From the NCBI GenBank assembly GCA_964540725.1, contig CAZINU010000001.1, positions 159,419-223,418 on the forward strand: DNA of 64,000 bases, in the 5' to 3' direction. The position numbers were made by a program, and so were the translations under genes. Source of the stretch: an uncultured Candidatus Peribacteria bacterium. Lineage in GTDB: Bacteria > Patescibacteriota > Gracilibacteria > BD1-5 > UBA2023. Below, one piece after another: positions 8,482 through 60,248 of this stretch; positions within the stretch are counted from its first letter, which is position 1; every line of letters begins with the position of its first letter. The notes beneath the pieces were generated by a model. The model did not search any database, had not been told where the DNA came from, and saw only the letters and a program-made list of their open reading frames with translations.

Positions 8482-8506
8482 GGTATTGAAAGTTAGGACC
8501 GTTCGA

Positions 8507-13197: not shown

Positions 13198-13286
13198 GGC
13201 TTTGGTCCCGAGAGTATACCGCGCAAATTCCCAAAAGCGAATTTCCCGCGGTTTTGATTTTTTGGGAACCGGGGTAGAATCCCCCC

Positions 13287-13784: not shown

Positions 13785-13787
13785 GCC

Positions 13788-14063: not shown

Positions 14064-14072
14064 CCCAAGCCT

Positions 14073-14873: not shown

Positions 14874-14954
14874 TCCCCATGATCTTCCTTCTTATCGCCG
14901 CCGCGTTCGCCGCCGCGCTGGCATTCGCCTTTTACTCGAAATAACCCGCGACCC

Positions 14955-15665: not shown

Positions 15666-15745
15666 GCGTTTTGACTTTTTCGTTTCCGTCCGTACGATAC
15701 GTTCGTCCGGGATTTCCGCGAAAACAGAAAAGGAAGGAGTGAACG

Positions 15746-15925
15746 ATGGAGCAAATCCTCCAGATGTTGCCCGCAAAAGTCGCCATGGTCTTCGGAGCGT
15801 TCGTCTCGACGTTCGTTTCGGCTGCGGCCATTGGCGTTCCCACTCCGATGGCCGTAACGGGAGGTTTCCTCTCCGCCCTGGTCGTCGCCGCCACCACCAA
15901 CCTCGCGCTCCTTCTCGGGGATTGA
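15746..15925 (+). CDS. Possible 59-aa hydrophobic peptide (SD-led) ending in TGA
   Basis: GGAGTGAACG-ATG has a GGAG SD. The product is MEQILQMLPAKVAMVFGAFVSTFVSAAAIGVPTPMAVTGGFLSALVVAATTNLALLLGD. It is followed by TGA and then a terminator 15 nt later. Under table 25 the frame stays open for more than 600 codons. Confidence 0.3.
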   Translation: MEQILQMLPAKVAMVFGAFVSTFVSAAAIGVPTPMAVTGGFLSALVVAATTNLALLLGD

Positions 15926-15940
15926 CCCCGGCGGACGCGA

Positions 15941-15968
15941 AAAAACCGGCGCTTAGGCGCCGGTTTTT
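15941..15968. terminator. Bidirectional rho-independent terminator
   Basis: A5-CCGGCGC-ttag-GCGCCGG-T5. The loop contains the TAA that closes the read-through form of the convergent gene. Confidence 0.6.
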
Positions 15969-17434
15969 CTTTTCTGGGAGGGGACGTTCTTTTTTCGGAT
16001 TTTTTTCTGGACCTTCGCTCCGTCCAACTTCGCTCCCGAAGGATCTTCGCTGACGTAGAGGGCTTCGTCGAACCATTTCGCCCGACGGGAGAGCGATTCG
16101 AACGGTTCGGTCAGAAGCTCGTGGCTCCGTCATTCGTAGTAGGAAACCTCGGTCAGCTTTCCGTCCGTTCCGATTTTTCCGCCGACGATGATGCCCGTAT
16201 GCTGTCCGACGTACCCGACGACGCCCCTTCCTTCCGGAGTCGTCCATTCGAGTCGGGCGAATCCGCGGTTCGGATCGTCGGTCATCGCGTACCAGAATAC
16301 GACGGGGTTTCCCTTCGCGAGACTTTTCACGATGGAGGCCGCGTCGAACGTGCCCTTGTCGATCTTCAATCCGTACCGTTTCAATTCCCTTCGGACGTAG
16401 GGGAGGGTCCCGTCGGCGTGGATTCCGTATCCGGTCAGCTTTTTCGGATTGGAACTCTGCCGACCGTCGATCCGTCCGACGAACCCCTTTTCCGGATCCG
16501 ACCATACGCGCGCTCCGCCCCGGTATTCGGGAAGTTCCGGAAACGAAGGGAGAAGGAGGACGACGGCTTCCTCCGCGATGGGGGATTCGCCCTTTCGGAG
16601 CCGATACGAATTCAGGAGGTCGCGGAGGGAGTTCGATTCGCACGAAAGGGGGTAGGCCTGCTTCGTATGCGGGATGTTTCCGGGAACGGAGAGTTTTCCG
16701 TCGAAATTCAGGAACCGTTTGCGGGCATAGGCGTACGCCGCGAAGTAGCGGGTTTGGGGGCCGACGAGCTCCCGTTCGATCGTTTTGCGCATGGCGTCGA
16801 CTTTTGCCGCGTCAAAGACCGGAATCCCGAGTTCCTCGAGAGTTCGGAGGGCGGCTTCGTCGGAGGGCGCCGAGGTCTTTCCTTCGTACGCCTTCCGAAT
16901 CGCGGCCGGCAGGGTTTTTCGACGTTTTTCCACGGATTTCGAAACGTCGCCTCCCGCTTCCCTCAGGGAAAGGAGGATATGGGCGTACGCTCCGAACAAC
17001 GCCCCGTCCTCCTTGAGGGCGGGCGCGGCAAGAATGCGTTTTTGGAGGTTCGCGAGATAGGCGGGATGGATTTCGGCCTTCGCGTCGATTTCCGAGACCA
17101 TCTCGAAGTTGGTGCGGAAGCGTTCCCTCGTCTGCGCCGGAGCGTTCCCGTACCGGGTGAGCACGTAGGCCGGAAGGCGTTTCTTCGCGAGCGCGTCGGC
17201 CAGCCGGTTGAGACTCTCCGCCGCGCGGAGCTTGCTTTCCCCGCCCGTTCCCGACATCCCGTCCGTTTTTCGTTCCGGAGCGGGAATTCTTTCGGATACG
17301 GGGGAGGGGATTCCGGTTCCGGAACCCGATTCGGATTCCGTGCCGGAAAGCGCTTCCGTCGGCCAGGCGGCGGAAGCGAGGAGGGCGGCGGAGGAAATCG
17401 TCGCGGCCGCGAAGGCCGCCGGGGCGAGGCGCAT
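15953..17434 (-). CDS. Secreted protein with C-terminal C39-like (papain-fold) peptidase domain
   Basis: A signal peptide (MRLAPAAFAAATISSAALLASAAW) begins at ATG 17434. The C-terminal region has QAYPLSCESNSLRDLL...GQHTGIIVG. A TGA at 16130 precedes 58 more codons to TAA at 15953. Confidence 0.6.
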
Positions 17435-17526
17435 GCTTTTGGATCGATTTCGGCGGAGTATAGGCACGTAAGGGCGTTTGTCGAAAAAAGGCGCCCGATT
17501 TTTCGGATTTCGGATATCATGCCGCC

Positions 17527-18360
17527 ATGGATGCCAAGATTTATGCCCACCCTTCGGTGCTGGACGGAAATTTCGGAAACAACGCGTTCGGACGTTTTTC
17601 CGACGCTCCGAACGAACTGTTCGTTCCGCACCGGACATTCGGAACCCTGGACGACGTCCGCCCCGGCTCGAAACCTGCCTTTCGGGAATTCGGAACGGGC
17701 GGTTCGCCGGTCGAATATCCGGGATTGGAGGCGTTCGTTTCCGCCCGGTGGAACGGAATTCCCCTTCACGTGTTCGATAATCACAACCACGCGCTCGCGT
17801 TCTGGTGCGAAGCGTTTTCGAACGGCGTTTTCGACCGGGGGGCGATTCTCGCGCATATCGACATGCACTCCGATCTTTGGCCGAACGAAAGCGATCTCGA
17901 TCTTTCCCGATCGGGCGACGCCGCCTACGTGGAAGCCTTCGTGAACGAAAAAACCTCCGTCGGAACCTACGTGGAGCCGGCCATGCGTTCCGGAATGTTC
18001 GCCGAATTCGTTCGCGTTGAAGGGGAGGGGGACCTGCGTCGGGAATGGGCGAACGTCGGAATCGGAAAGTACGGTCCGGAAGTCTTTCCCAATGCCGTCG
18101 AATCTCCGAACGCCCCCGTTGCCGAAGTTCGCGACAACCTTTCGGAAGGTCCGTACCGGGGTGGGAAGCCCTTTCCGGACATCGTGTTGAATCTCGATCT
18201 CGACTTCTTCGCGCCGGATCTGGAGGACGTTCCGTTCGAATTGAAGCGGGACGTCATTTTGGCCTTCGCCCGGCGTTCGAAGGCAATTACCGTCGCCACG
18301 AGCCCGTGCTTCATCGAGCCGGGTCGGGCAATTTCGGCGCTTCGGAACATTTTCGGATAG
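17527..18360 (+). CDS. Hypothetical protein, UPF0489/arginase-fold-like metal-binding motifs
   Basis: The 277-aa product has HVFDNHNHALAFW, HIDMHSD and LDLDFF. The family assignment is from memory only. Confidence 0.5.
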   Translation: MDAKIYAHPSVLDGNFGNNAFGRFSDAPNELFVPHRTFGTLDDVRPGSKPAFREFGTGGSPVEYPGLEAFVSARWNGIPLHVFDNHNHALAFWCEAFSNGVFDRGAILAHIDMHSDLWPNESDLDLSRSGDAAYVEAFVNEKTSVGTYVEPAMRSGMFAEFVRVEGEGDLRREWANVGIGKYGPEVFPNAVESPNAPVAEVRDNLSEGPYRGGKPFPDIVLNLDLDFFAPDLEDVPFELKRDVILAFARRSKAITVATSPCFIEPGRAISALRNIFG

Positions 18361-18457
18361 AAGGGTACGACCTTTCGGCGCTCCGGGGCAAGGCATGGAA
18401 AAGAACGAATTTTTTCCAATTCCGAAATTCGAAAAACGATGTCCGTGGACGAAGAAT

Positions 18458-18483
18458 GAAAAACCCCGCCCTTTCCGGGCGGG
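18458..18483 (-). terminator. Rho-independent terminator directly after the E1-like gene
   Basis: On the minus strand CCCGCCC-ggaaa-GGGCGGG is followed by GTTTTTC. It begins 10 nt after the TGA at 18494. Confidence 0.65.
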
Positions 18484-18493
18484 TGGAAACTCG

Positions 18494-19312
18494 TCACTTC
18501 GCGGCACAAACGCACTCCGGGTGCGGAGGCAGTTCGAACCGACGGCTCGAAAGGGGCGCTTCGAGAATTCCGGGGATGCCGGAAACCGAGAATACGATCC
18601 AGTTCGAACCGATGGGCGGAAGGGCGTGTTCGGTTCCTTCGAGCAGGAGATCGAGCGAAGCCCGCGAAGCGGTCTTCGCGAGAAACGACTGGTCGATACC
18701 GATGCCCGGAGCCGTTTTGGCATCGCGGGAGGAAGAACAGTCGGCCTTCCCGCCGGTTTTGCGGAACGTTTCGAGAAAATCCTTTCGGTTTTGGTATTCG
18801 AGGAAGCACGAATAACAGGCCGATTTTGGTCGGCAGACGAGAATTTCGCCTCCGCACCCGCGCTCGAACATGCTGACGAACACGGCGGCCGTTCCCGATT
18901 CCCTCGCGATTTCGCCGGAATAGGCGCGCGAAGCGTCGGTATCGGTTCCGACGACGACGAGGTCGGATTCCGCGACCGCCCGTTCGAATTCGGTACGGGC
19001 ATCGAAGACGCTTTTCGGAAACGCGAGAACGTCCGGAAGCGGCTCGAGCGAATACCGTTCGAGGAGCCGCTTGGCCGCCTCGGCTTTGTTTTGGCCGACG
19101 TACTCGGCTCCGCATGCGTGGCGGACCAGGTTGCCGGGCTCGAGGACGTCGCCGTCGAAGAGCCGGAACCGTTCGATTCCGCACCTGAAGAGGTCGAGCG
19201 CGATTTCGGCCGCCCCGCCGAGACCGACGACGGTCACGGTTTTTCCGGAGAGCGGGGCATGGAGGGGGTCCCGGCGCGCGTTGGGTTGGCGGTAGGGCGA
19301 TTCGGTACGCAT
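18494..19312 (-). CDS. E1-like ThiF/MoeB-family adenylyltransferase
   Basis: AAAGGA-N6-ATG lies at 19312. The product has GKTVTVVGLGGAAEIALDL (Rossmann GxGxxG), FDGDVLEPGNLVRH, VVVGTDTD and a CYSC motif. It ends in TGA. Strict table 25 would extend it to TAA at 18287. Confidence 0.8.
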   Translation of the reverse strand: MRTESPYRQPNARRDPLHAPLSGKTVTVVGLGGAAEIALDLFRCGIERFRLFDGDVLEPGNLVRHACGAEYVGQNKAEAAKRLLERYSLEPLPDVLAFPKSVFDARTEFERAVAESDLVVVGTDTDASRAYSGEIARESGTAAVFVSMFERGCGGEILVCRPKSACYSCFLEYQNRKDFLETFRKTGGKADCSSSRDAKTAPGIGIDQSFLAKTASRASLDLLLEGTEHALPPIGSNWIVFSVSGIPGILEAPLSSRRFELPPHPECVCAAK

Positions 19313-19418
19313 GGAAGTTCCTTTCGCGGTTCGTTCTTTCCCGTCCGGAGTTGCCGGGTTTCGGGAGGGCGTTGTGGCGTCCGAGCGAGATTCTCGCGTT
19401 CGGACGCCGGATTCCGCC

Positions 19419-19667
19419 TTATCGGCGGCATTTCGCGAAGCTTCGGAAGTTTCGGCCGATACGGGAGAAAAAATCGGCGTCTCCGCGTTCGGCGGCCTCT
19501 TTCGCTTCGGGGGTGGTATCGGCCGCCACCGCTCCGCCGGGACCGACGACGAGCGACGTCGACTCTCCCCGGGTAAAGGGGAGGATGAGCCGTTCGGTCG
19601 CCGTGACGTCGACCGTGCGGCGGTGGCCGTCGATGCCGAGGTCTTCGAGTTTGAGGGGTTGTGCCAT
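19419..19667 (-). CDS. Small 82-aa protein between the E2-like and E1-like genes
   Basis: It has AAAGGAG-N6-ATG and a TAA stop. There is no C-terminal GG and I recognised no motif. It is in frame with the upstream E2-like ORF. Confidence 0.45.
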   Translation of the reverse strand: MAQPLKLEDLGIDGHRRTVDVTATERLILPFTRGESTSLVVGPGGAVAADTTPEAKEAAERGDADFFSRIGRNFRSFAKCRR

Positions 19668-19724
19668 GGTTCGCTCCTTTCGTTTGGCATGGAAAAAGGG
19701 GTTCCGGCCGTCTGGCCGGAACGT

Positions 19725-20189
19725 TCAGGCTTCGGGGAGTATCCACTTCCCCGTCGCGAGTTTTACCTCGTAGGCGTGGAGCCAAGCGGCCGCGAGGTTC
19801 AGGACGGTGACGACCGAGAACTTCGTTTCCCAGCCTTGTCCCGAGGCTCCGTCGGGCTTCATGACGCAGAGAACGATTCCGTCGGAATCTTCGTCGTACC
19901 CGAGATGGTGGAATTCGTGCATCCCGGAGGATTCGCACGTTTCGATCACGTCGGAATCGCAGACGGCGACCCTCGGATAGGCGTAGGGATACTCCTTCGG
20001 ATACTCCGCCCGAACCCGGTACGCGTTCCCGCTATGGGTAACGAAGAACCCTTCGGCGAACAGCCGGTCGCCTTCCGTCATGAGGCGGAAGGCCGGGAAC
20101 GCATCGGCGAGCATGTCGTGCTCGTACGCGAGGCGCTTCAGGTATTTTTCGGGATTCGGTTGAACCCAGTTCGGAAGTACGGCGTTCAT
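19725..20189 (-). CDS. Prokaryotic E2-like (UBC-fold) protein
   Basis: It has AAAGGAGA-N4-ATG. The 154-aa product has EYPKEYPYAYPRVAV followed by HHLGYDEDSDGIVLCVMKP (candidate catalytic Cys) and a W...VLNLAAAWL helix. It ends in TGA. Confidence 0.65.
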   Translation of the reverse strand: MNAVLPNWVQPNPEKYLKRLAYEHDMLADAFPAFRLMTEGDRLFAEGFFVTHSGNAYRVRAEYPKEYPYAYPRVAVCDSDVIETCESSGMHEFHHLGYDEDSDGIVLCVMKPDGASGQGWETKFSVVTVLNLAAAWLHAYEVKLATGKWILPEA

Positions 20190-20219
20190 GGTTTCTCCTT
20201 TCTTTTGAGATATGGGGGC

Positions 20220-21425
20220 TTACGAGAGTCCCTCCGGAACTTCGCCGTCGCGGGGGACGGCGTTCCGGCGTACGAGTTCCGGACGGCGGGGCGGTTCGTT
20301 CCGACGGTTCGAGGTTCCTTCGCGGAGGGCGTCGGCTGAAGCCCTCGCCCTTTCCCGCCTTTGACGTATGACCTCCGAAAACCAATTCGGATCCGACGTC
20401 CGCCTACTGCGTTGGACTGGGGGTTCCGATGAGGAAGCGTCCGGCTCGGCAGTTTCCGGGGGGTTCGTCGGAAGGGGTACGGAACCGGCGATTTCCGGCG
20501 ACTCCGGGGGGTCGAAAGATTCCGGACGGCTTGGAGTTTCGCCGTTCGTTCGGAACGCCTCCCGTTCGTTTCTCGAAGGCCGGCCCGACCGTGGCGCACG
20601 CACGAGCCGGCGCCCGGAGCCGTTCGCCGCGTACGGCGGAACCGGCCAGTCGCCGTCTCCGCCTTCGCTTCTTGGTCCCTTCCACACCCGCTTCCATACG
20701 AAAACGGCTGCGGCCGCGAGCATGCCGGCAACGGCAAGGGCGGCCATTCTTCCGGGCGGTTTGGAAAAATCTTGCGGCGGACGGATGGGCGGATGGTCGA
20801 ACCCACCCCCGTTTTCAAGGGGTTCCGGGCTCGGTTCGGACTTCGGAGCGACCGAATCGCGGTAGACGGGCGCCGGGGCAAAATCCCTTTTCGCGGCGGC
20901 CGGAGAGGGGGGTGAAAATTTTTCGGCCCCTACGGCGGCCATCGACGGTTTCGGTCCGGTCTTCGGCTCCGATTTTTCGGCTGGTACGATCCATTCCGTC
21001 GCGGGTTTTGGCGCTATTGCCGCCGTGGACGGACCGTTTTCGGAGGGCTCCCGATCGACGGTTCGTTCGGCGGCATTTTTCGCCGACTGGGCGAGCCGTC
21101 CGAAGGTTCGGACGGCCGTTTCGAGCGTTTCGAGCGTCGAAATCCGTTCGTCCAGGGAAACGGATTCGTCCCGGTACGCCTGATGCGCCATCGTCGCGTA
21201 TTTGTCACGAAGGTCGGCCCCCATTCCCGAAATCTCCCGCCAACGGGCGGACGTTTGGGAATTCGGATCGGATTCGGCCAATGCGGCAAGTTTTTCGGCG
21301 CTCGCCGTTCCTTCCGCGGTCTTCTTCGGCAGTTCGAACGCGAATGCCGACGACCAGAAGAGAACGGCGAAAAGTACCGATACGAACGCGGCTGGCCGGC
21401 TGTTTCGAAAAGAAGTTTCCATCAT
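20220..21425 (-). CDS. Hypothetical membrane-anchored Pro/Ser-rich protein
   Basis: AAAGGA-N5-ATGATG. It has an N-terminal signal/TM (AAFVSVLFAVLFWSSAFA), a mid TM (MAALAVAGMLAAAAVFVW) and a TAA stop. Confidence 0.55.
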   Translation of the reverse strand: MMETSFRNSRPAAFVSVLFAVLFWSSAFAFELPKKTAEGTASAEKLAALAESDPNSQTSARWREISGMGADLRDKYATMAHQAYRDESVSLDERISTLETLETAVRTFGRLAQSAKNAAERTVDREPSENGPSTAAIAPKPATEWIVPAEKSEPKTGPKPSMAAVGAEKFSPPSPAAAKRDFAPAPVYRDSVAPKSEPSPEPLENGGGFDHPPIRPPQDFSKPPGRMAALAVAGMLAAAAVFVWKRVWKGPRSEGGDGDWPVPPYAANGSGRRLVRAPRSGRPSRNEREAFRTNGETPSRPESFDPPESPEIAGSVPLPTNPPETAEPDASSSEPPVQRSRRTSDPNWFSEVIRQRRERARASADALREGTSNRRNEPPRRPELVRRNAVPRDGEVPEGLS

Positions 21426-21679
21426 TCCCGTCCTTTCATGGCTTGGATGGATTCGAAGATCGCCCGGGCCCGTTCGCGTTTTTTCGCGGAATCGGCGATT
21501 TCCGGAGAATTTCCCCGGACGAGGGGCGGTTTTTGCGGTTCGCAGGTTTTTGCGGCGACCCGGGTTCCGTCGTATCCCCGGAGAATTCCGGACGGTTCGG
21601 ACCCGAACCCGCGAATCCCCAGGATTCCGCAGCCGGAAAGGGCTATGGCGCATACGAAGGCGCAAGCGAGCGTTTTCAT
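21422..21679 (-). CDS. Small lipoprotein
   Basis: AAGGA-N7-ATG. MKTLACAFVCAIALSGC is a textbook signal plus lipobox. Its TGA stop overlaps the next start (ATGATG). Confidence 0.6.
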   Translation of the reverse strand: MKTLACAFVCAIALSGCGILGIRGFGSEPSGILRGYDGTRVAAKTCEPQKPPLVRGNSPEIADSAKKRERARAIFESIQAMKGRE

Positions 21680-21691
21680 AACGGATTCCTT

Positions 21692-22198
21692 TCAGAGGTG
21701 GTTTCGGCGGATGGCCGAGTAGAGGGGGCGGATATCCGAAACGGATATCCCAACCTCGGGTTTCCCGAGGATTTCGGCGATTTCTTCGATGCTGATTTCT
21801 CCCGCCAATTCGGGTGACGACCGGCGTACGAATACCCGGACGGCCAACGTCGGAACGTGGCAAAGGAACGAGAATTCGAACGCTCCGGTCCTCCAACCGT
21901 TCCCGGATATCCGGGCCGCGAGCCAGGGGTTTCTCCGACCGCTTTGACCTTCGGGTTCGAAACGATCCCCGAATTCTTCGGCGGCCGCTCGGAGGTTCCG
22001 ATAGGCGTCGCCGGCGACTTTCGAATTCGTTCGGATAGCTCTTCCGAGCGGTCCGCGGATGAGGGAAAAGATTCCCAGGATCGACGATTTCATGACCCAG
22101 AAGGCGGTGGCGAAAATCGCGATTCCCCGACCGAGCGGGCCGGAGAGCAGCGCCCTGGAGAGAACCTCGGCACGGAAGTATTCGTTGAAAACGGACAT
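21692..22198 (-). CDS. Hypothetical protein with C-terminal sigma-70 region-4-like HTH
   Basis: AAAGGAGG-N5-ATG. The C-terminal ELAGEISIEEIAEILGKPEVGISVS resembles an ECF sigma region 4. It ends in a TGA that overlaps the next SD. Confidence 0.45.
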   Translation of the reverse strand: MSVFNEYFRAEVLSRALLSGPLGRGIAIFATAFWVMKSSILGIFSLIRGPLGRAIRTNSKVAGDAYRNLRAAAEEFGDRFEPEGQSGRRNPWLAARISGNGWRTGAFEFSFLCHVPTLAVRVFVRRSSPELAGEISIEEIAEILGKPEVGISVSDIRPLYSAIRRNHL

Positions 22199-49052: not shown

Positions 49053-50939
49053 ATGTCTAAAATCATCGGCATCGACCTCGGTACCACCAACTCCTGCGTC
49101 GCCTTCATGGAAGGCGGACAAGCCAAAGTGATTCCCAATGCCGAGGGCGGCCGCACCACGCCGTCGGTCGTCGCGTCGAAGGGCGGCGATACGCTCGTCG
49201 GCATGCCGGCCAAGCGCCAGGCCGTCATGAACCCGGCCCAGACCATCTATTCCGCCAAGCGCTTCATCGGCCGGAAGTTCAGCGAAGTCGGCAGCGAACT
49301 CAAGACCGTTCCGTTCAAAGTGACCGAAGGTCCGGACGGGGGATGCCTTATCGAGTTCAACGGCCAAGCCGTCCGCCCCGAGGAGATTTCGGCCAAGGTT
49401 CTCGAAAAGCTCAAGGAAGACGCCGAGAAGTTCTTGAATGAGAAGGTAACCGAAGCCGTCATCACCGTTCCGGCCTACTTCAACGACTCCCAGCGGCAAG
49501 CGACCATCAACGCCGGAAAAATCGCCGGCCTCGACGTCAAGCGCATCGTCAACGAACCCACCGCCGCCGCCCTCGCGTACGGCATCGAGAAGAAGAAGGA
49601 CGAAAGGGTCGCCGTCTACGACTTCGGAGGCGGAACCTTCGACATCTCCATTCTCGAAATCGGGGCGGAGGGAACCTTCGAGGTGCTCGCTACCAACGGC
49701 GACACCCACCTCGGAGGCGACGACTTCGACCAGAAGATCTTCGAATGGATCGTCGAAGAATTCAAGAAGGACCAGGGCGTCGACCTTACGAAGGACCCCA
49801 TGGCCGTCCAGCGCGTCAAGGACGAAGCCGAAAAGGCGAAGAAGGAGCTCTCGTCCGCATCCGAAACCGATATCAACCTGCCGTACATCACGGTCGACGC
49901 TTCCGGGCCGAAGAACCTCTTCATGAAGCTCTCTCGCGCCAAGTTCGAAGAACTCGTCTACGACCTCGTGCAACGCTCGGTCGAACCGTGCCGCAAGGCC
50001 CTTTCCGACGCGGGACTCCAAGCTTCGCAGATCGACGAAGTCATCCTCGTCGGAGGCTCCACCCGCGTTCCGCTCGTCATTAAAAAGGTCGAAGAAATCT
50101 TCGGAAAGAAGCCCAACGCGTCCGTCAATCCCGACGAAGCCGTCGCCGTGGGCGCGGCCGTCCAGGCGGGTATCATCCGCGGCGACGTCACCGACGTCCT
50201 CCTCTTGGACGTTACGCCGCTTTCCCTCGGTATCGAAACCTTGGGCGGCGTCATGACCCGAATGATCGAGCGCAATACGACCATCCCGACGAGCAAATCG
50301 CAGGTCTACTCCACCGCCGCCGACAATCAGGATTCGGTCGAAATCCACGTCCTCCAAGGTGAGCGCGAAATGGCGGGCGACAACAAATCGCTCGGACGCT
50401 TCATTCTTTCGGGCATCGCCCCGGCACCCCGCGGCATGCCGCAGATCGAAGTCACCTTCGATATCGACGCTTCCGGCGTCCTCCACGTAACCGCCAAGGA
50501 CAAGGGAACCGGAAAAGAACAGAAGGTCTCCATCCAGGGTTCCACCGGAATGGACGACAAGGAAGTCGAAAAGCTCGTCAAAGAAGCCGAAGCCAACCGC
50601 GAAGCCGACAAGAAGCGCAAGGAAGGCATCGAAGCCCGCAACCATGCCGATTCGGCCCTCTATCAGGCCGAAAAGACGATGAAAGATAACGAAGGCAAAT
50701 TCGACGACGCCCTGAAGGCCGAAGCCGAAGGCAAGGTGGCCGATTTAAAGAAGGTGCTCGAAGATTCGAACGCTTCGAAGGAATCTATCGAAGAGGCTAC
50801 CAAATCGCTCACCGAGGTAATGATGAAGATCGGTCAGGAAATCTATTCCAAGGCCCAGAATTCGACCGACGCCGGCAATGCCGGACAGGGCGGGGAAGGG
50901 GAGGCTTCCTCCGAGTCGGAGGGAAGCAAGGCGGAATAA
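49053..50939 (+). CDS. dnaK: Molecular chaperone DnaK (Hsp70)
   Basis: The product starts [14 protein letters not shown] and carries [17 protein letters not shown] and a C-terminal lid. Confidence 0.97.
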
Positions 50940-50959
50940 CCGCCTCTCCGCGACGACGA

Positions 50960-50998
50960 GAATTCCCCGGTTCCGGCCGGGGAATTCTTGATTTTTTT
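50960..50998 (+). terminator. Rho-independent terminator after dnaK
   Basis: GAATTCCCCGG-ttccgg-CCGGGGAATTC is followed by a T-rich tract. Confidence 0.65.
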
Positions 50999-51372
50999 CG
51001 ACAGTATGATGCAATACGCCTTATTTCCTAACCCCTCCCGCCATGAAACTGAAACCGGATCCGAACGCGTCTCCCGAGTACCCGGCCGTCCCTCCTTCCG
51101 TCCCTGCCAACGCCCAAGTTTCGCGCTTTCGCTCCGTATCGGCCCGTATGCGCGTATGCGAGGGGGTGGTCGATCCGGGGGAATGCGTCGGAAGAACGAC
51201 CGGTTGCACGCCGGAGAAATGCGAAATCTTCGCCTCCCGAGTGGCCCGCCTTCTCGTCTGTACGAGAATGGCATGGAATTTGCCCAAACGGAAGTAGGGG
51301 GTTCGGAGCGATTTGACACCCGCAAAACCTTCCATAGAATGCGCCCGCTTCGGTTCTCCGAGGTTCCCATGT

Positions 51373-51447
51373 TGGGGTATCGCCAAGCGGTAAGGCAGCG
51401 GATTTTGACTCCGCCACGCGGGGGTTCGAATCCCTCTACCCCAGCCA
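51373..51447 (+). tRNA. tRNA-Gln (anticodon UUG), CCA encoded
   Basis: TGGGGTATCGCCAAGCGGTAAGGCA matches the tRNA-Gln 5' half, including the U1-A72 pair. The anticodon stem is GCGGA/TCCGC with loop TTTTGAC. The T-arm is GGGGG-TTCGAAT-CCCTC. The acceptor 3' strand is TACCCCA, followed by G-CCA. Confidence 0.9.
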
Positions 51448-51462
51448 TAAGGGTCATAAACG

Positions 51463-51492
51463 CAAAGGGAAGCCGAAAACGGCTTCCCTTTG
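51463..51492. terminator. 13-bp hairpin between tRNA-Gln and the recombinase gene
   Basis: CAAAGGGAAGCCG-aaaa-CGGCTTCCCTTTG. It lies inside the still-open recombinase reading frame. Confidence 0.5.
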
Positions 51493-51555
51493 CCGTTATC
51501 GGAGTTCGAACTTTTTTTCCCGCCCCCCTTCTTCTTTTTGGACCTCGTTAGAACT

Positions 51556-53216
51556 TCACGATGGAAAATGCCTTGGAATAGCGGTTTCAGGCGGAAGTTC
51601 ACTATGCGCCCCCGATGAACGATGACGTAGTCGAAAATCGCTTTCGCCACTCATCGTTTTTTTCGTGGCGGGAAGTTTTTGAAATTGGTAGCGAGCTCTC
51701 TCGCGTAGGATAATGGTTCGTTTATCATCTCCGCGTTCCTTTCGGATACCGCGGGAAGGTTGGCGAGACGGTTCTTCGTCTCTTCGATTTCGACTTCCAG
51801 CTTGGATAACTGGTCGCGGATTTTTTCCTTCAGGAAAGGAAGCGTTTCCTCTACGTAGACCTTTAAGTTCCGTTGGCTTTCCCCTTCGAGCCTTCCGAGT
51901 TTTTTCCGAAGCAGGTTTCCGACGTCTTCTTGGAGTTTCCCTTCGGATTCGAGTCGAATCTCGATTGCCGTTTTGAGAAGTTTCATTTCTTCTTCGTCGA
52001 AGACCAGTTTCGATATGATTTCCTCGTTCAGAAGATTTTCCAGTGTGATGCCCGATATGAACTCGTTGTCGCAAGCCCCCTTTTTATTACAGGAGCAACG
52101 GTAGTATTGGTAGGATTTCTCCTTCTTTTTCTTGGTTTCCGCGGTAAACGGACGGAGCGATCAATTTTTCACGGCCGTTTCGTAATCCGTTCCGTCTCCC
52201 ATTTGGCACGGACAACGGACGATTCCTTTCCAAAGATACACTTCGTTTCATTCCCCCCATCCGCCTTTCGGTCAGCATTTCTTGCCTTCTCGAACGGCCC
52301 GGCATTGGTCGAACAGCCGTTTCGATATCAGGGGTACGAACGTTCCGAGTTCCCGTATCCGTTCGGTATAATCGACGACGACGCTTCATTCGCCGATTTC
52401 CATGAACGGGTATTTTTCTCGCAAGTACTCCCTTGCTTCGTTGTCGGGCATCTTATATTCGATTGCCACCCGACCCCAGTACAATTCCTGCGACAACATC
52501 TTTTCCACGTCCTTTTTCGTGAATTCCTCGATAATCTCGGGTTTTTCTCCGGAACGGTATTTCCGAAATCCGAGGCCGTTCAGTTTTTCTGCCAAGCTTT
52601 CGAAGCTGTACTCCCCCGTGGAATACAGTTCGAAACAGTTTATGACGGCCTCGTTTATCCGATGGTTCGTGTCGATTTCTACGCGCGTATATTTTCCTCT
52701 TCCATTCCGTACGTATCATCTCGGCACTTGTCAGGAAATCGTTCCTTTCTCACGAATGGCACTATCGAGGTTCATGACGCCACCGCGGGATTTCTCCATG
52801 CTTTCGAAGACCGCTTCGTTTATGGCGTCCGCAAGTGCTTTCTTTCCCGACAGCACGGAACAATCGAAGCCTTCCCGTATCGAATATACCTTAACGACGT
52901 TCCCGACCACGTACCTTTTCAGAACGTCTCATTCTTCGAAGTTTCTCGCCAAACGCGAAGCCATGTAGACGAAAACCCCGTCGATTCTTTCGCCTTCGCC
53001 GAGAACGTTCCTTTTCCGTATCTCTTCCAGCATTTCCGTAAACTCGTCCCGACATCCAGCGACGAAGCTCGATTTGTTGTCCTTGAAAACTTTCACGATT
53101 TCGAATCAGCGCTTTCGGCATTCCGTGGTCAGCGCGTCGATTTGAAAGTCGATCGAAACCGAACGGTCCTTGTGTTTCAGACTGCTCCTTCTGGCGTAAA
53201 TGAAGACTTTTTCCAT
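51556..53216 (-). CDS. Large serine recombinase (integrase), 9 in-frame TGAs, 3' end undefined
   Basis: MEKVFIYARRSS...SIDFQ (catalytic Ser) and YMASRLARN mark the resolvase domain. The recombinase domain has PLISKRLFDQCRAV. The zinc ribbon is VRCPCQMGDG...YQYYRCSC. A coiled coil follows, then the C-terminal AIFDYVIVHRGRIVNFRL. There is no in-frame TAA or TAG until 51021, so the frame crosses tRNA-Gln antisense. Confidence 0.85.
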
Positions 53217-53735
53217 TGCGGGCGTGGGTTATGGAACCGTCGGCTTATTACCGTCTCCGAATCTTGAAATCGACGATGGTTCCGCTCGAATCCGTCACCG
53301 TTTCGAGTTCGTCCGTCGGACCGAAATTCATGAAGTACCGGAAAAGGTCTTTTCGGTACTTCCACAGGTAGAGCGCGAGGAGTCCGAAGGCTTGGTTCGG
53401 AAAGTGGTCTTTCGCTTCGGATATTGTCGGTTCGGTCCAATTCCTTTTCGAAGCGTGTTTTCATAAGGAATCGAGAGCGTGCTTGGAAGCTCTCGGAAGG
53501 TTCGGCAGGTTGGCCATGAACCCCCTTACGGCTTCGGAAAGGTTTTCGGCGATGCCGATGGCTTCGGCGGTCGAAATCTCGTTTCAGCGGTACCGGTAGC
53601 CCTTTCCGTCGGGAGAAAGGAGTTTTTTCAAAATCTGCTCGATTTCGCGTTCTTTCCTCGCGTCGTACGGTTGGTTCGCCATAGGATTTCGGGTTAACCC
53701 GTAAAAGATACCGAAAAAATCCGAAACCGAAAATC

Positions 53736-54497
53736 CTACAGCCATTCTGCGACTTTTTTGAAAGAACGATTCAAGGCTTCCTTGCGTTCTTCGTCGCTCC
53801 TTCCGTCGTCTTCCACGAATCACGGAACGAACAGCACGGCGATTATCGGGAAAACGAAGAATCAGGCGGAGAAGGCTTCGAACCATTCGGGCGTGGTACC
53901 GATTCCGTCGAATATCTTTACGGGAACCATAAAAAGAGCGAAAAACGCGAACCAGTGCTTCTTCAAAAGCGTGGTGATGACGAGTATCGCGTAAAGGAAT
54001 CCGAGACCGCTCAAAAGCGATGCCATCGCCACGAAGAAGAGAACGAATCATCGGACGTTCGACGGAATCTTCGAAAGGATTGCGTCGGCGGTTTTGATCG
54101 CTTCGCAAATCCAAGCGAGAACTTCTATCCAAAGGGGGTATCGCGTTTCCTTCGGTCGCGGTTTTTCCACGGTCGGTTTCGGTTCCGACGTCCGCCGAAC
54201 CGAAAGGTTCGATTTGAGGCTTTCGTATTCTTCCATCATCGCAACGAAATCGGCCCCCTTTCATCAGCGGTCTGGGTGGTATTTCATCGCGAGTTTGCGT
54301 TTTTGCCCTTCGAGCAAGGCTTCTTCGCCGACGAAGTACCGGTCTTTGGGGAAGTGTTTCATACGCGCGGTCGGGTAATGGAAAAACCTTTCCGCGATTG
54401 TATCTGGGAAAAATGTCTTGTCCGGTGCTTTAGTGCGGAGATTGCGCGGTACCCGAGTCGATACGCGGAAAACGCCCAGACACGCTCGAACACGCAT
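53736..54497 (-). CDS. J-domain (DnaJ-like) membrane protein
   Basis: KRKLAMKYHPDR-[TGA][TGA]-KGADFVAMMEEYESL restores HPD-x-GG (54261-54266). Hydrophobic helices follow. There are 5 in-frame TGAs in total. The stop is TAG at 53736. Confidence 0.75.
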
Positions 54498-54515
54498 CGG
54501 CTTTTTTCGTCATTT

Positions 54516-55211
54516 TTACGACCTTTCCGATTCCAAAACCCCTCGAACGGTTTCCAAGGTGAGGAGTCCGAAGTTTTCGGGAAAGTACGTTTTCCGATTC
54601 TGGTCTTCGGGGTCTATTCGGAACAGTCCGAGGTTTTCCGTTTTGGAATACAGGATTCGCGATTGCCACTGCTTCATTCATAGGGCGAAAACCTTTCGGA
54701 CGGAGAAGTCTTTCCTTTCCAAGAGTTCCAGCATTCAGGCGAAAACCCTTTCCGATTCGTCCGCATACCCTTTTCCGACGGTTTCGGAACTCCCGGTTTC
54801 GAGCGAAAGGCAAGGAGCCGAGAGCGTTCGGTATCAGGGTTTCACGGCTCCGTCGGACGACTTGCCCGTAAAAAGGAGCACGCACGCGGGAATCTTCGTT
54901 CCGTTCACGCTCGCGGACGTGAAGGAAACGTTCGGATACCCGTCTCACGGAAGGAGGCGGTTCGCCATTTTCCTGAAATGTTCGAGAACGGTTTTCAATA
55001 TCGGCAGTGCCAAGAGCGCGGAAGAAACGGTTTTCGGATCCACTTTCAGTTCGAAGACGACGAAAGATTGCGAACGTACTATCCGTCCGACCATCCGGTC
55101 GGGAGCGAGCGTTTCGTGGAAAGAGAAGAACGCGGGAATTTTCGAAGATTCCACGGCCCTTTCCAACGCGTCGCGGAGCGTCGTCCTATCTTCCATCGCC
55201 GATTTCGACAA
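54516..55211 (-). CDS. Hypothetical island protein (4 in-frame TGAs)
   Basis: ORF 54945-55211 continues in frame through TGAs at 54945, 54834, 54735 and 54678 to TAA at 54516. The composition looks protein-like, but I recognised no motif. Confidence 0.5.
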
Positions 55212-55671
55212 GCCTCGCCATCTCCGCGCGTATCTGTTCCAATTCCTCCGTTTTCTTTTCTTCGCTCATCCCGAGCTCTTCGAGCTTCATTCGGAGCTTG
55301 TCGGATTTCAAATCGGAATCGAAAGGGTTGGAAGAATCCGAAGAGAACGAATCGAGTTCGGCTTTGCGTATTTCGTTTTCGAGTTCGCGTTGGCGGATGG
55401 CGATGGTTTTCAACGCGTGGACGGTAGCCCGTTCCTTTTCGGCGAGTTTCCTGTATTCGGTTTCGGCCTTGGAAAGCGGTTTGCCTTGTCGTGATTCCGA
55501 CCGTTCCGAAGTTTTGGAAGAAGACGGCGTGTGCCAGAATGCGAAGAACGCGACGAGCGCGAGAACCGCTATGAGTCCGAAAGAGTCGCCGTCCGTCGGA
55601 CTTTCCTTCTTGGGTATCGGCTTCGGAGATTCCGTCGCCGTGGCGTACGCCGTTCGGTAAAGTGCGTCCAT
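55186..55671 (-). CDS. Hypothetical TM plus coiled-coil island protein
   Basis: It starts MDALYRT, has a TM helix (FGLIAVLALVAFFAFW) and then an E/K/L-rich coiled coil. The stop is TAG. Confidence 0.5.
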   Translation of the reverse strand: MDALYRTAYATATESPKPIPKKESPTDGDSFGLIAVLALVAFFAFWHTPSSSKTSERSESRQGKPLSKAETEYRKLAEKERATVHALKTIAIRQRELENEIRKAELDSFSSDSSNPFDSDLKSDKLRMKLEELGMSEEKKTEELEQIRAEMARLVEIGDGR

Positions 55672-55740
55672 AGTAAGGGAAAAATGAAGGTGTAATCGGC
55701 GTTTTCTGCGCCTCGTTATCTCCAATGGATGCCACGGACG

Positions 55741-55835
55741 TTTTCTCAAATCTTTTTCCGACTTTTTTCGCGTTTCGACACGCGACCGCACGCCGAAGCG
55801 GAAAAGTCGGATTTTTGAAAAAAGATTTGAGAAAA
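55741..55835. repeat. Long imperfect inverted repeat inside the island
   Basis: TTTTCTCAAATCTTTTT..CCGACTTTT (55741-55766) matches AAAAGTCGG..AAAAAGATTTGAGAAAA (55802-55835). The two arms flank a GC-rich 35-nt spacer. Confidence 0.5.
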
Positions 55836-56357
55836 CGGATCGCTTTTCGAATTGGATGGAAGTTCGGCTCCGTCCGACGGCTTACCAATTCATTTTTTTC
55901 GACATGAAGAAAACTACCGAAGAAACCACGTGAGGATTCTATTTCCACTCCGACGATTTCGAACCGTCGAGAAAGCTCGAAGACGGCGATTCCTTCGCGC
56001 ACTACCGTTTTCATTTCCTTTGCCGGTACGCGCTCGACGTGCGGGGAATCGAGGATTTTTCCTTCACGGTTTGAGAATTCGTGGAAAACGCCAAGGCGAA
56101 GAAGATTTGAAATCCCGAAAAACTCTCGGCGTCGCTTCTCGACGGTTGCGTACCCGAAAACCCGTACCTTTCCTTCTCTATGGAAAACGGGGTTCCGAAG
56201 ATTTCCGTTTCACAGCCGAACTGAAGGGGAAGCATAGGCGAAAACCTCGTCGTGCTCGATTCGGCGACTTGCTCCGCGGTTTCGAAAGACGCCGAAGCGT
56301 TCAAGTTCCTTTGTTCGGTCGTGAAGAACTGCCGAGGTTAGCGAACCGATTCGAAAA

Positions 56358-56396
56358 GAAAAATCCCGAACCGTAGTCAACGGTTCGGGATTTTTT
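56358..56396. terminator. Bidirectional terminator inside the island
   Basis: ATCCCGAACCG-tagtcaa-CGGTTCGGGAT has A-runs and T-runs on both sides. Confidence 0.6.
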
Positions 56397-56743
56397 GAAA
56401 AAGTCGGTTTTTTTCTTGAGAAAACGCGGAACCCATCCATTTCGCAAGACAACGGCTGACCGAGTACAAACGGTCGTCCCAGAGCGGTGAGTCCCCGAGG
56501 ATATAAAACCGCGCAAATGGGTCGCGATGAGCCGAAACGCGAGGCATTCCTTGGCGAACGCAGTCCGATATACGGAACGGGTTCGAACTTCTCCGTTTTG
56601 GCGAAAGCCAAACGAGTGATAAGTCCCTAACGGGATGAGTGGTAGCGACGAGCGTTTTTTCGTGCTCGCTCTTCTTTTTGTCGGTTTTGAAAGAGCGGGC
56701 ACGCCCCACGAATCGAATCCTCAATCGGAACAGGCTACAAAAA

Positions 56744-57982
56744 CTACCGCTCTCTATCTTTCAATAAGACTATGAAATCTTCAAGATTCATGAGCCAGCC
56801 CTTCTGCCTGTCCGTATAGGTTTCATGAAGTTTCTTCGGGAGGATGAGTTGAAGATTTTCACTTCGCATCTCGTCCGTTTGAGATTCGCTGATTGCTGTT
56901 TGAAGAGTGATGAGATGTTTTTTCTCGATTCGTTTCGCTTCGGCTAAAACCTGTCTCCATCTGTCTTTACAGGTTGTCTTCGCGCCCAGCATTGTCAGTT
57001 TACTTATTGGAAAAGCGGGATTTCTGTATTCGTCGATTCATGGAAAGAGGAAATCCGGTTTGGAGCGGTTTTCCGTTATTTCAGTTCTTGAATGCCTGAT
57101 GGATCTGCTTTTGAAAAGATGTTCTATATGGTTTTCCAAACTTGCTCAAGCGCGACTTTTCCTTCTGTTTTGAACATGGAGCGAGAAACCTATGAATCCT
57201 TCAACGTCGGCAATGCCCCGACCATCCATGAATCATTGGGAAAGCCTGTCAGCCAGATGATAACGCTCCAAGGTTCTAAAAAGTACCTCCTCACGTTCCA
57301 TCCACGCCATAAGGACGGAATCTGAATCATCCAAGGCATCGACGCCTTTCAAAGTTTGCCGAGCGTATTCGGAAAAGATTTTCGTACTTGGAAACGAGTC
57401 TTTTCAAAAACGAGAAAGCATATCTTCCAAGAATGTCTCGTCTTCCGTCTCCACCTGAAATCCTATCGCTTCCAAAATTGTTTTTGCTGCGAACTCGATT
57501 CGAACCTGTCAGGTTTCAATTTCGCTCCTGACTGAAAATCAAGGATGGGCTGACGTCGTTAGGCCAAAGAGCCATTCTAATTGGCTGGCGATAGTCGAAT
57601 CGTTTTCGGCAATAATGATCAACAGCCGTCAGTTCGGTAATTTGCCGATGATTAGTAAGTCGCCTTCATTGGCGCATTCAGAGACGCTGGTTGTCGGAAA
57701 ATAGAGCCTATATTCAGAACGTCAGGTTTTCTCGAAACTTTTAGCCCTTGGGTCATACCAAGTCACCGTTCATTCATCCGAGACGGCTTCGTCGTCAAAA
57801 TCGTTGAGGTACAGAAAATGCGCTTCGAAATACTTCTTTTCTTGCTCCTCTCACAACATCGTTTTAAGTCCTTTTACCCCATTGAACTCGTGCTGATTCG
57901 AATTCGCGGGATTCGCTTCGACTGCGCTCAATCGCTTTGCAGCGATGCTCTCAAAATATTTGGAAAGATACCCGTTTTCCAT
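56744..57982 (-). CDS. Type II restriction endonuclease, EcoRII-like (10 in-frame TGAs)
   Basis: Hand-joined 412-aa product. The N-terminus is MENGYLSKYFESIAAKRLSAVEANPANSNQHEFNG. The C-terminus is PDFLFP...GAKTTCKDRWRQVLAEAKRIEKKHLITLQTAISESQTDEM. The family call is from memory of EcoRII-type sequences. The ATG directly follows the methylase TAA. Confidence 0.75.
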
Positions 57983-59263
57983 TTATGCCGTAGTTATCAA
58001 AGAAGGAGCGTCCTCTTTCATTTTAGCCAACAAGGGCGAATAAAGCGATAGCTGTTGATTTTTTATACCCATGATATGGGGTTTCATTGCTCGCGCTGCT
58101 TCGCTCATAACTGGAACGACGACGGAGTTTCCGAATTGCCTATAAGCTTGGGTGTCGGAGACCGGGATTTTGAAAGAATCGGGAAATCACATCAGACGCG
58201 CGCATTCACGGGGTGTAAGTCGCCTTGGATTCTTATTTTTACCCCTTGAGACGAGTATTTCCGAACCATCTTTGTAATATCGGGCGGAGAGAGTTCGACT
58301 TGTGTCATTCGGCGTCACCAATCCGAATCAGAACCCATTTCACTTCGCCTTGTGCTTCTCGGCGTATCATTGTAAGTATGCCCACAGCTTGTCTGATAGG
58401 GTGAACTTCGATTGAACTTTTCATTTGGAACCGTGAATGTACCTATTTCCATCATGTTCAATTGGCAATTCCGTTCCGTCCTCTGGATGAAGGATGAAGT
58501 TCATCTTCGGTGCCGATAATGGAATGTTGAAGGAGTCCCATGAAAAATCAGTCTTCTCCCTGAATCCAACTATCAGTATTCGTTCCCGATGTTGTGGAAC
58601 CCAAGATTTTCCATCTACGACCTTCCAATGTACGTCATAACCCAATTCATCTCGTAATGTTTGTAAGATTACGCGGAACGTATTGCCTTTATCATGGGAA
58701 ACAAGATTTTTTACGTTTTCCAGCAAGAAAGCCGAAGGGCGTTTTTCTGCGATAATTCTTGCGACATCAAAAAAAAGAGTTCATTGGGTGGTACATTCGA
58801 AACCATGAGGACGACCAAGGGAGTTCTTTTTACTTACCCCAGCGATAGAGAATGGCTGACAAGGGAAACCTGCCAGCAATACATCATGATTCGGTATATC
58901 TTTCGCTTCAACTTTGGTAATATCTCACTCCACCTTGTGATCCTCCCCGAAGTTCTCGACGTAAGTTTTTACTGACCAAGGACTCCATTCGCTCGTAAAC
59001 ACGCACTTTCCGCCTGCTTGTTCGAAACCAAGGCGAATGCCACCGATTCAGGCGAAGAGGTCTATGAACGTGAAATCTTGTCCGCCATTTGTTCAGTTCT
59101 TGGAGGAAAGGGCTTCTTTAAGGGCTGGGATTATCAAGGATGGGGTGGGGATTTCACCTTTTTCCCAACGTCGAATGGTACGAGAGTTCCTTCATAAAAT
59201 GTTCGCGATTTCTCATTGAGAAAAGCGTAATCGGGCCTTTGCGAGCATTTCTTGCGGACTCAT
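57983..59263 (-). CDS. DNA cytosine-5 methyltransferase with N-terminal HTH (11 in-frame TGAs)
   Basis: An Xre-like HTH (SQ-[G]-EIANIL-[G][13 protein letters not shown]) precedes the methylase motifs. These are motif I FIDLFA-[G]-IGG, motif [10 protein letters not shown], motif VI ENV, motif [24 protein letters not shown]-[G]-FPD and QFGNSV. Confidence 0.9.
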
Positions 59264-59308
59264 ATTTTCGTTTTACTGGGTAAGATTTCGGACAAAATAT
59301 CCGGATTC

Positions 59309-59345
59309 TGACACATGTCAAAAGGCATTTTATGTATTTTTACAT
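59309..59345. promoter_or_regulatory. Palindromes in the AT-rich region upstream of the methylase (candidate operators)
   Basis: TGACA-ca-TGTCA lies at 59309-59320 and ATGTA-tttt-TACAT at 59332-59345. Confidence 0.35.
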
Positions 59346-59501
59346 AAAACCATATGTAATTTATAAGCGAAACACAATTTATTTGTGGATTTACTCGTCT
59401 CAAAGAAGAAAAGCCTCCGTTAATCTCGCTAAATCGTCAGGCTTACAGCCTTTCATAAAGAGTTCTAACACTGCCTCCTCGGGTCAGCCATTCTCGAATC
59501 A

Positions 59502-59706
59502 AAAATCCCCCGAAAGGGGGATTTGTTGTTCGAGAAGGCGGGGTAGAGGGATTCGAAGCCGCCGCCTTCCGTCTCGTCCGCCGGAGGCGGCGAGGCGGTA
59601 CGGAGCCACTATTCGTGGCTCCGTAGGCAAGGGGTTCCGAGGAACGAGCGTCCGGCGCCGCATCGCGGCCCGGCGCGACATTCCGAGGAAAGAATCCCTC
59701 TACCCC
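59502..59706 (-). ncRNA. Structured element B (candidate ncRNA) with terminator; paralogue of element A
   Basis: On the minus strand the 5' arm GGGGTAGAGGGATTC (59706-59692) pairs with the 3' arm GAATCCCTCTACCCC inside 59540-59557. Internal hairpins are present, for example ACGGAGCCAC-gaata-GTGGCTCCGT. The shared 20-nt core is at 59627-59646. An AAATCCCCC-tttc-GGGGGATTTTT terminator lies at 59503-59524. Confidence 0.35.
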
Positions 59707-59936
59707 TCCGCAAGTTTCCAACGAACGGGGGCGTATCGTTCCAACATTCCTCTATCCCCAGTACGCGGAGGGGTTTCTTCCCGAAAGCCACCGTATCGAA
59801 TCCTTCCAAATTTCGATTTGCTTTTTCTTTCGGAATCCATAGAGTCTTCGGGCTCAAAAAGGCGGGAAGGGTTTTTCGCCTGTTGATTCGGAGTGATTTT
59901 TCCATATACTCCCCACCGTCATTTTTCATTCGTACC

Positions 59937-60248
59937 ATGCTCGCAGTCGTAGAAATCGGAGGAAAGCAATACACCGTCAAAGCCGGTGACGTCATCGAAG
60001 TCGACAATCAGAACGCCGAAGTCGGCGCGAAGATTACGGCCGTTCCCCTTCTCGTCGCGAAGGAAGACGGTTCTGACGTCAAGGTCGGCACCCCGTCCGT
60101 TGAAGGATCCGAAGTTACCCTCAAGGTTCTCGAGAACTTCCAGGGCGACAAGATTCGCGTATTCAAGATGAAGTCCAAAAAGCGCTATTCCCGAACCCGG
60201 GGTTTCCGCGCGAGCCTCACGAAGCTTGAAGTCGTAAAAATCGCGTAA
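59937..60248 (+). CDS. rplU: Ribosomal protein L21
   Basis: MLAVVEIGGKQYTVKAGDVIEVD...KIRVFKMKSKKRYSRTRGFRASLTKLEV. Confidence 0.95.
   Translation: MLAVVEIGGKQYTVKAGDVIEVDNQNAEVGAKITAVPLLVAKEDGSDVKVGTPSVEGSEVTLKVLENFQGDKIRVFKMKSKKRYSRTRGFRASLTKLEVVKIA

Follow-up and report, generated by a model that had tools for sequence, protein, structure and literature searches.

Restriction-modification (R-M) systems of the EcoRII/Dcm type are known from enterobacteria, where M.EcoRII and Dcm belong to a Type IIE/IIP system directed at CCWGG. Here we compare with them a pair of genes in a stretch of 64,000 nucleotides (nt; hereafter the window) from an uncultured Candidatus Peribacteria bacterium (GenBank assembly GCA_964540725.1, contig CAZINU010000001.1, positions 159,419 to 223,418 of the forward strand). 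The pair consists of M, a predicted C5 cytosine DNA methyltransferase gene, and R, a predicted restriction endonuclease gene, and it is carried by an inserted island (Table 1). The likeness of M to M.EcoRII and Dcm extends to the target-recognition region. R resembles EcoRII in its size of ~400 amino acids (aa), in its C-terminal catalytic domain (41% identity between a modelled homologue of R and the EcoRII structure 3hqg) and, at the level of fold, over the full length, including a probable B3-like N-terminal domain. Unlike the genes of the EcoRII/Dcm system, M and R of the window are co-directional and abut, M preceding R, and both require UGA to be read as glycine. Also in contrast to that system, M falls under the cutoff of the curated Dcm subfamily, and the N-terminal domain of R is without detectable similarity to the EcoRII-N sequence.

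The endonucleases SsoII, Ecl18kI and PspGI, which recognize CCNGG or CCWGG, have a catalytic-core fold in common with R (Foldseek E ~1e-9; phmmer to Ecl18kI 0.004), but they are far more distant, at 16-18% identity, and lack an N-terminal effector domain. A widespread family of uncharacterised Type II endonucleases of ~400-420 aa from Proteobacteria, Nitrospira and cyanobacteria, with examples in Pseudomonas sp. RL (P0007) and Paraburkholderia sacchari (P0048), is 58-63% identical to R over the full length and keeps its invariant residues. Members of this family have no in-frame TGA and many are accompanied by vsr, whereas the recoded copies described below bear TGA and are without vsr. The island itself may be likened to the prophages of Gracilibacteria and Absconditabacteria, likewise mobile DNA integrated in genomes that use genetic code 25 (UGA=Gly). 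Every prophage found in these lineages has a high density of in-frame TGA, and some phages are code-neutral (PMC10746230). Unlike those prophages, the island is small, bears a recombinase and has no phage genes. Several R-M systems are listed for a code-25 bacterium (PMC8080830), and one is reported in a complete Gracilibacteria genome (PMC6851277). The speculation that recoding isolates the genes of SR1 and Gracilibacteria from those of their neighbours is attributed to Campbell et al. 2013 (PMC8080830). The idea of a code barrier, the TGA-dense prophages and the presence of R-M systems in these lineages are thus already published.

We suggest that M and R very probably form an intact, self-contained Type II R-M cassette on an island of ~8.3 kb, with an origin in standard-code bacteria and TGA codons gained by drift within recoded hosts. 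The preliminary description of this DNA, made from its letters and open reading frames (ORFs), had pointed to a methylase-then-endonuclease operon in which a TAA touches an ATG, to an island more AT-rich than the rest of the window, and to ten in-frame TGAs in the endonuclease and 11 in the methylase, some of them within motifs. All of this is reproduced here. The stop codon of M (TAA, 57985-57983) immediately precedes the start codon of R (ATG, 57982-57980), and neither gene has an internal TAA, TAG or frameshift in 838 codons. The GC content is 0.444-0.445 at 57-59 kb, compared with 0.55-0.64 across most of the window and ~0.58 in host genes. The TGAs within motifs include those of DLFA[G]IGG (motif I, codon 72) and RLM[G]FPD (codon 359), in which the brackets mark the residue encoded by TGA.

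M matches PF00145 (7e-90, aa 64-394, profile positions 1-323 of 324), the NCBIfam model TIGR00675 dcm (329 bits, cutoff 100.65) and the PADLOC MTase_II model (3e-155). Its best match in the PDB, at 3e-105 and with the target-recognition region included, is 3lx6/3me5, a methyltransferase that we take to be the Dcm of Shigella. The C5-methylase motifs are all present in the code-25 translation, as FAGIGG (FxGxG), PCQ, ENV, QHRER (QxRxR) and GNSV (FGNSVVVPV), with two of the motif glycines encoded by TGA. A short helix-turn-helix (HTH)-like segment, which has weak HTH_28 and MqsA-type matches, precedes the catalytic domain. M is predicted to be a complete C5 cytosine methylase that is nearest to Dcm, and by the PRK10458 model it is Dcm-like rather than a Dcm equivalent.

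R matches PF09019 EcoRII-C over all 165 of 165 profile positions (1.3e-67, aa 235-404), the EcoRII structures 1na6 and 3hqg at ~1e-42 (aa 197-406), and the REase_II model of PADLOC. In its catalytic region, the residues E283, D310, K335 and K339 and the DRWRQ stretch are invariant across 25 sequences. The first 193 aa have no Pfam match even at E<=1. For structural comparison we used the AlphaFold model (pLDDT 82) of a homologue, P0003, that is 63% identical to R. This model aligns to full-length EcoRII with an E value of 4.5e-23 over 437 columns, and its N-terminal half has weak Foldseek matches (E 0.02-0.2) to the B3 domains of ARF1, LEC2, BfiI-C and LlaJI.R1-N. The N-terminal domain of R is probably B3-like, at the level of fold only. 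By its catalytic domain R is predicted to be an EcoRII-type endonuclease, and the EcoRII-like/Dcm assignment made earlier for the pair stands, with PF09019 and PF00145 both supporting it.

The closest relative of R, at 75-77% identity, is P0001, the R protein of a second recoded cassette on L001, a 34.9-kb contig from Logan with a GC content of 0.44. The deposited P0001 protein (L001 10001-11245) has W at invariant glycines, code 4 having been used instead of code 25. L001 carries the pair in the same order, M then R, with 85% (M) and 77% (R) aa identity to the window genes and 13 TGAs where the window has 21. M and R, together with their leader, are all that the two islands have in common. 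The host of L001 is a Gracilibacterium too, with a malic enzyme 91% identical to that of a Gracilibacteria metagenome-assembled genome. The GC content of the cassette (0.45) suits L001-like genomes and not the host of the window, whose codon model failed to call M or R as genes.

Homologues of R number more than 7000. Next after P0001 come standard-code proteins, 61-63% identical, of Pseudomonas, Paraburkholderia, Pandoraea, Nitrospira and cyanobacteria. None of 88 fetched metagenomic and viral homologue loci (GC 0.34-0.65) has an in-frame TGA, and a search of metagenomes and viruses for more recoded copies yielded standard-code homologues only, at 48-61% identity. The order M then R is kept in 78 of the 81 loci that contain a methylase, and these methylases are 65-74% identical to M. 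In the three loci that were checked (L009, L079 and L082), M and R are separated by a Vsr-like gene (PF03852, 7e-31 in L009), and gap sizes suggest that many other standard-code loci carry vsr as well. The recoded copies are without it, M and R abutting in the window and lying one base apart in L001.

The simplest history suggested by these comparisons is that the cassette family originated in standard-code bacteria and then spread and drifted within the recoded clade. In this scenario, a standard-code cassette would have entered a UGA=Gly lineage and later moved between Gracilibacteria. Import of this kind is permissive because genes terminated by TAA or TAG are read alike in both codes. GGN codons would subsequently have drifted to TGA up to the composition-neutral share, about a quarter to a third of all Gly codons. 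The earlier proposal that the cassette evolved inside UGA=Gly hosts agrees with these findings, as its sole close relative is also recoded and the two copies differ by many exchanges between TGA and GGN.

CCWGG is absent from 50535-60139, a region of 9.6 kb that includes the whole island and in which ~7 sites are expected (Poisson p = 0.0009). Of the 416 5-mer pairs for which six or more sites are expected, only three are absent. CCSGG shows no depletion in the island (4 sites versus 5.3 expected), which argues against a CCNGG specificity. The region of L001 between tRNA-Leu and a serine recombinase (4052-20058), taken as the L001 island, has four CCWGG sites where 13.7 are expected. Site avoidance and the Dcm-like recognition region together favour CCWGG as the predicted specificity. 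In the host part of the window there are 61 CCWGG sites versus 69 expected, and this pattern of avoidance fits a recently arrived cassette that was long carried on mobile DNA. If so, M would methylate the inner cytosine of CCWGG, and R would cut unmethylated CCWGG in incoming DNA. The abutting TAA and ATG would couple the expression of the two genes, with M translated first. The leader of ~70 nt is conserved with the region upstream of the L001 cassette (L001 8654-8736), more strongly than the coding DNA, and its TTGACA -35-like box sits within the palindrome TGACATGTGTCA. This palindrome may be an operator for the HTH-like segment of the methylase, by which M may autoregulate the conserved promoter.

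Alternatively, the genes may be intact but no longer restricting, with R inactive, with M acting as a stand-alone epigenetic methylase, or with the pair kept mainly as a selfish addiction module, by which the island is stabilised. CCWGG is not avoided in the host part of the window, as this alternative would have it, but the same is expected after a recent acquisition. The recombinase ORF of the island looks irregular, and the vsr partner of many standard-code relatives is missing; nevertheless, the catalytic region of R is fully conserved, neither ORF is interrupted by TAA, TAG or a frameshift, and the two copies have a conserved promoter region. We consider a cassette that has ceased to restrict unlikely.

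In host genes, TGA accounts for 28 of 1281 Gly codons (2.2%; 1.8 per 1000 codons). The corresponding figures are 24 of 122 (19.7%; 14.7 per 1000 codons) for the other island genes and 21 of 61 (34%; 25 per 1000 codons) for the R-M genes, whose TGA share differs from that of the host at Fisher p = 3e-17. The seven TGA-densest genes of the window are all island genes. That host genes are far lower in TGA than the island had been noted in the preliminary description, and within the window the difference persists at a matched GC content of 0.50-0.545 (24/122 in the island versus 4/87 in the host, p = 0.0016). What did not hold is the further notion that the island is specially enriched in TGA. An expectation from composition only, in which each of the five Gly codons is weighted by the product of its base frequencies, puts the share of TGA at 12.9% in the host, 18% in the island and 25% in the R-M genes. 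The observed shares match this expectation in the other island genes (p = 0.64), in the R-M genes together (p = 0.11) and in R (p = 0.10) and M (p = 0.57) separately. It is instead the host core that is depleted, ~six-fold under expectation (2.2% versus 12.9%, p = 5e-43). Relatives of the host are depleted as well (TGA is 3.0% and 6.0% of Gly codons in the two genomes counted, L003 and L004), and the non-cassette genes of L001 have 11% versus 24% expected. Mobile genes use TGA as an ordinary Gly codon and core genes avoid it, so that the TGA of the cassette can be explained without selection.

A second cassette in the window, at 18287-22198 (minus strand), had been set against the island as a contrasting case. 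Its GC content is indeed host-like (0.60-0.62) and its TGAs are few, but it is not free of them, having one or two in-frame TGAs per gene. It holds a ThiF/E1-like protein (PF00899, 6e-19), the neighbours of which have no Pfam matches.

It could be argued that the high TGA content of the island was selected, either as a lock against standard-code competitors or as a throttle, limiting tRNA-Gly(UCA) slowing the translation of R more than that of M. TGA makes up 42% of the Gly codons of R and 30% of those of M, compared with 2% and 11% in the two hosts. Both copies of R are rich in TGA, which accounts for 10 of 24 Gly codons in one and 9 of 27 in the other, with five TGA positions in common, and the prophages of these lineages are all TGA-dense (PMC10746230). 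However, the TGA fractions of R, M and the other island genes do not differ from the composition-only expectation, and the L001 methylase holds only four TGAs. Moreover, M has only one of its 11 TGAs in common with its orthologue, most positions switching between TGA and GGN, which is the pattern of saturated synonymous drift. Selection for TGA thus seems very unlikely, and nothing shows a selected lock: the unreadability of the cassette elsewhere is a by-product of its residence in a recoded lineage.

The meaning of TGA can be read from the cassette itself. In a codon alignment to the L001 orthologues, all 21 window TGAs fall at Gly codons (15 GGN and 6 TGA); among the TGAs of the L001 pair, six others lie opposite a window GGN and a seventh opposite a window Ser codon. 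Seven of the ten TGAs of R are in columns where Gly is commonest among standard-code homologues, and five of these positions (44, 148, 250, 279 and 315) have Gly with few or no exceptions, G148 and G279 being invariant. The TGAs of M align to G of the PDB chain 3lx6, and none to Trp. Host genes also have TGA at conserved glycines, for instance in the Walker-A sequences S[G]PNGIGKT and AC[G]KT. TGA is usually a common stop codon in a standard-code genome of 58% GC. Here, every called gene that terminates within the window ends in TAA or TAG, and TGA is entirely absent from 29 of the 47 called host genes. These genes were called with a self-trained codon model, the longest ORFs bounded by TAA or TAG being mostly wrong-frame and Arg-rich. 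The only tRNAs detected in the window by ARAGORN are tRNA-Glu(CUC) and tRNA-Gln(UUG). The DnaK of the window is 100% identical to an NCBI protein, and among its best relatives, at 78-95% identity, those that are named bear the label Candidatus Gracilibacteria or Patescibacteria. We conclude from these sequence comparisons that the whole window is predicted to use code 25 and that its host belongs to the Gracilibacteria. Read in the standard code, M would stop at codon 17 and R at codon 44, as the truncation proposed earlier requires, and the cassette would therefore be workable only in UGA=Gly hosts.

Two readings of TGA other than glycine have next to no chance of being right. Were TGA a stop codon, the cassette would be a dead relic with M and R as pseudogenes in a standard-code host, and the standard bacterial code (table 11) does split the region into ORFs of at most ~40-100 aa; however, 21 TGAs have accumulated without a single TAA, TAG or frameshift in 838 codons, each of them faces a Gly codon in the orthologue, the TGAs of host housekeeping genes are at invariant glycines, no called gene requires a TGA stop, and the host groups with Gracilibacteria. 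Tryptophan (code 4), the residue with which a public pipeline translated P0001 at its TGA positions, is contradicted by the occurrence of TGA at the invariant FxGxG glycine and at two glycines of the nuclease family, G148 and G279, and by 15 TGA positions that lie opposite GGN in the orthologue, with none opposite Trp.

Several observations weigh against our reading of M and R as an active, CCWGG-specific cassette that moved into and between recoded hosts. Both activity and specificity are predicted from sequence alone, and the call of specificity is indirect, drawing on the Dcm-like recognition region and on avoidance over only 8.4 kb. M scores 434 bits with PRK10458, under the cutoff of 710, and is not a member of that subfamily. 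phmmer finds no match between the N-terminal domain of R and EcoRII-N, and the B3-like fold is taken from the model of a homologue with weak Foldseek scores. Only two recoded copies are known, which makes the direction and number of transfers tentative. The neutral expectation for TGA comes from a simple model of base frequencies. The right border of the island can be placed only between 59706 and ~59840, and the recombinase ORF is without a normal stop, so that the island may no longer be mobile.

The setting of the cassette is that of an integrative island. In four relatives (L003, L004/L005, L094 and L096, with DnaK 92-93% identical), the order is DnaK, ~1-2 kb, tRNA-Gln, ~90-110 bp and rplU (L21), with no island at the site. 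In the window the distance from tRNA-Gln to rplU is 8.5 kb, and homology to the relatives ends at 51448-51450. A 15-bp direct repeat, GAATCCCTCTACCCC, which is a copy of the tRNA 3' end, is found at 51428-51442 and 59692-59706; serine recombinases do not require such repeats. Based on the empty site in relatives, we interpret the insertion as an integrative island beside tRNA-Gln with a large serine recombinase. In the recombinase ORF, the recognisable domains end at ~aa 400 and are not followed by any TAA or TAG; the frame continues for ~140 codons antisense through the tRNA-Gln gene. The junction of a hypothetical excised circle gives it no early stop, and no excised form of the island was seen. 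The recombinase gene may be decaying, or the assembly may be in error.

Table 1. Positions of the predicted R-M cassette, its island and associated features in the window
Feature	Position	Strand	Details
C5 cytosine DNA methyltransferase gene M (Dcm/M.EcoRII-like), predicted	57983..59263	minus	426 codons, 11 in-frame TGA, stop TAA
EcoRII-type Type II restriction endonuclease gene R, predicted	56744..57982	minus	412 codons, 10 in-frame TGA, stop TAG
Promoter/operator-like leader of the cassette	59264..59333	minus	TTGACA-16-TATTTT at 59321..59294
DNA homology with the second recoded cassette	56814..59333	minus	blastn versus L001 8654-11172, 72% nt, flanks unrelated
Inserted island, ~8.3 kb, between tRNA-Gln and rplU	51448..59706		relatives' empty sites, GC 0.44-0.53
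tRNA-Gln(UUG), left border of the insertion	51373..51447	plus	ARAGORN; Rfam RF00005, 60.6 bits
Large serine recombinase ORF	51021..53216	minus	PF00239, PF07508, PF13408; 9 in-frame TGA
Five island ORFs	53248..56341		codon-model gene calls; 2, 5, 4, 0 and 4 TGAs
GC-rich structured/inverted-repeat element, right island end	59537..59709	minus	two copies of the tRNA-Gln 3' end

The five ORFs between the recombinase and the cassette have no Pfam or PADLOC matches. The TGA counts given earlier for these neighbours (nine in the recombinase, five in a putative J-domain protein and four in a hypothetical protein) are correct, four occurring in two hypotheticals, but the J-domain label could not be verified. 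The protein in question (53736-54362, minus strand) has no Pfam match at E<=0.01, and the label comes from its HPD-RGG motif alone. It has a KYHPDRGG motif, the two glycines of which are consecutive TGA codons, and hydrophobic, membrane-like stretches.

The element at the right end of the island is a structure of ~173 nt with a minimum free energy of -114.6 kcal/mol (z = -7.3). Its perfect closing stem of 15 bp is formed by a direct (59692-59706) and an inverted (59540-59560) copy of the tRNA-Gln 3' end, and a terminator-like hairpin (59507-59521) comes after the element on the minus strand. The element is absent from the four related genomes and matches no Rfam family at gathering or E-value thresholds. 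A tmRNA or tRNA-like identity was ruled out, as the T-arm cannot pair. It may represent a remnant of attR together with an inverted copy, or else an RNA borne by the island.

In one of the relatives (L004/L005, 11991-12818), the spacer between DnaK and tRNA-Gln holds a different defence-type gene, Mrr_cat plus HRDC, which has a host-like GC content of 0.57 and no in-frame TGA. With this gene in the spacer, the neighbourhood between DnaK and rplU looks like a hotspot for restriction genes.

From the perspective of the genetic code, the question shifts from the TGA of the island to its avoidance in the core of a Gracilibacterium of 58% GC, and it is this avoidance that needs explaining. The published complete Gracilibacteria genome has 28.9% GC (PMC6851277). 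The present host is unusually GC-rich and its core nearly avoids TGA, so that the contrast between island and core is much sharper than in reported cases. Neither the near-purge of TGA from a 58%-GC core nor the structured element was found to be addressed in the literature searched. A more far-reaching interpretation, which we regard as quite unlikely, is that UGA has been nearly purged from the core (2-6% versus ~13% expected) and that islands are its main users, perhaps under selection. If this were true, the exchange of mobile DNA within the recoded clade would keep tRNA-Gly(UCA) indispensable, defence cassettes would have a private gene pool bounded by the code, and the TGA richness of mobile defence genes might be maintained by selection and not by drift.

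For the annotation of such genomes, the consequence is that table 11 misses or fragments cassettes of this sort. An export barrier follows logically from the code, and the confinement of the cassette to the recoded lineage is consistent with the two recoded copies at hand. The barrier can only be one-way, because the cassette family was, on the history favoured here, imported from standard-code bacteria. We suggest that the island provides a clean, delimited case of a defence cassette that would have crossed into a UGA=Gly clade, circulated there and become unreadable elsewhere, and as such it lends support to the published idea of one-way gene flow as a result of recoding.

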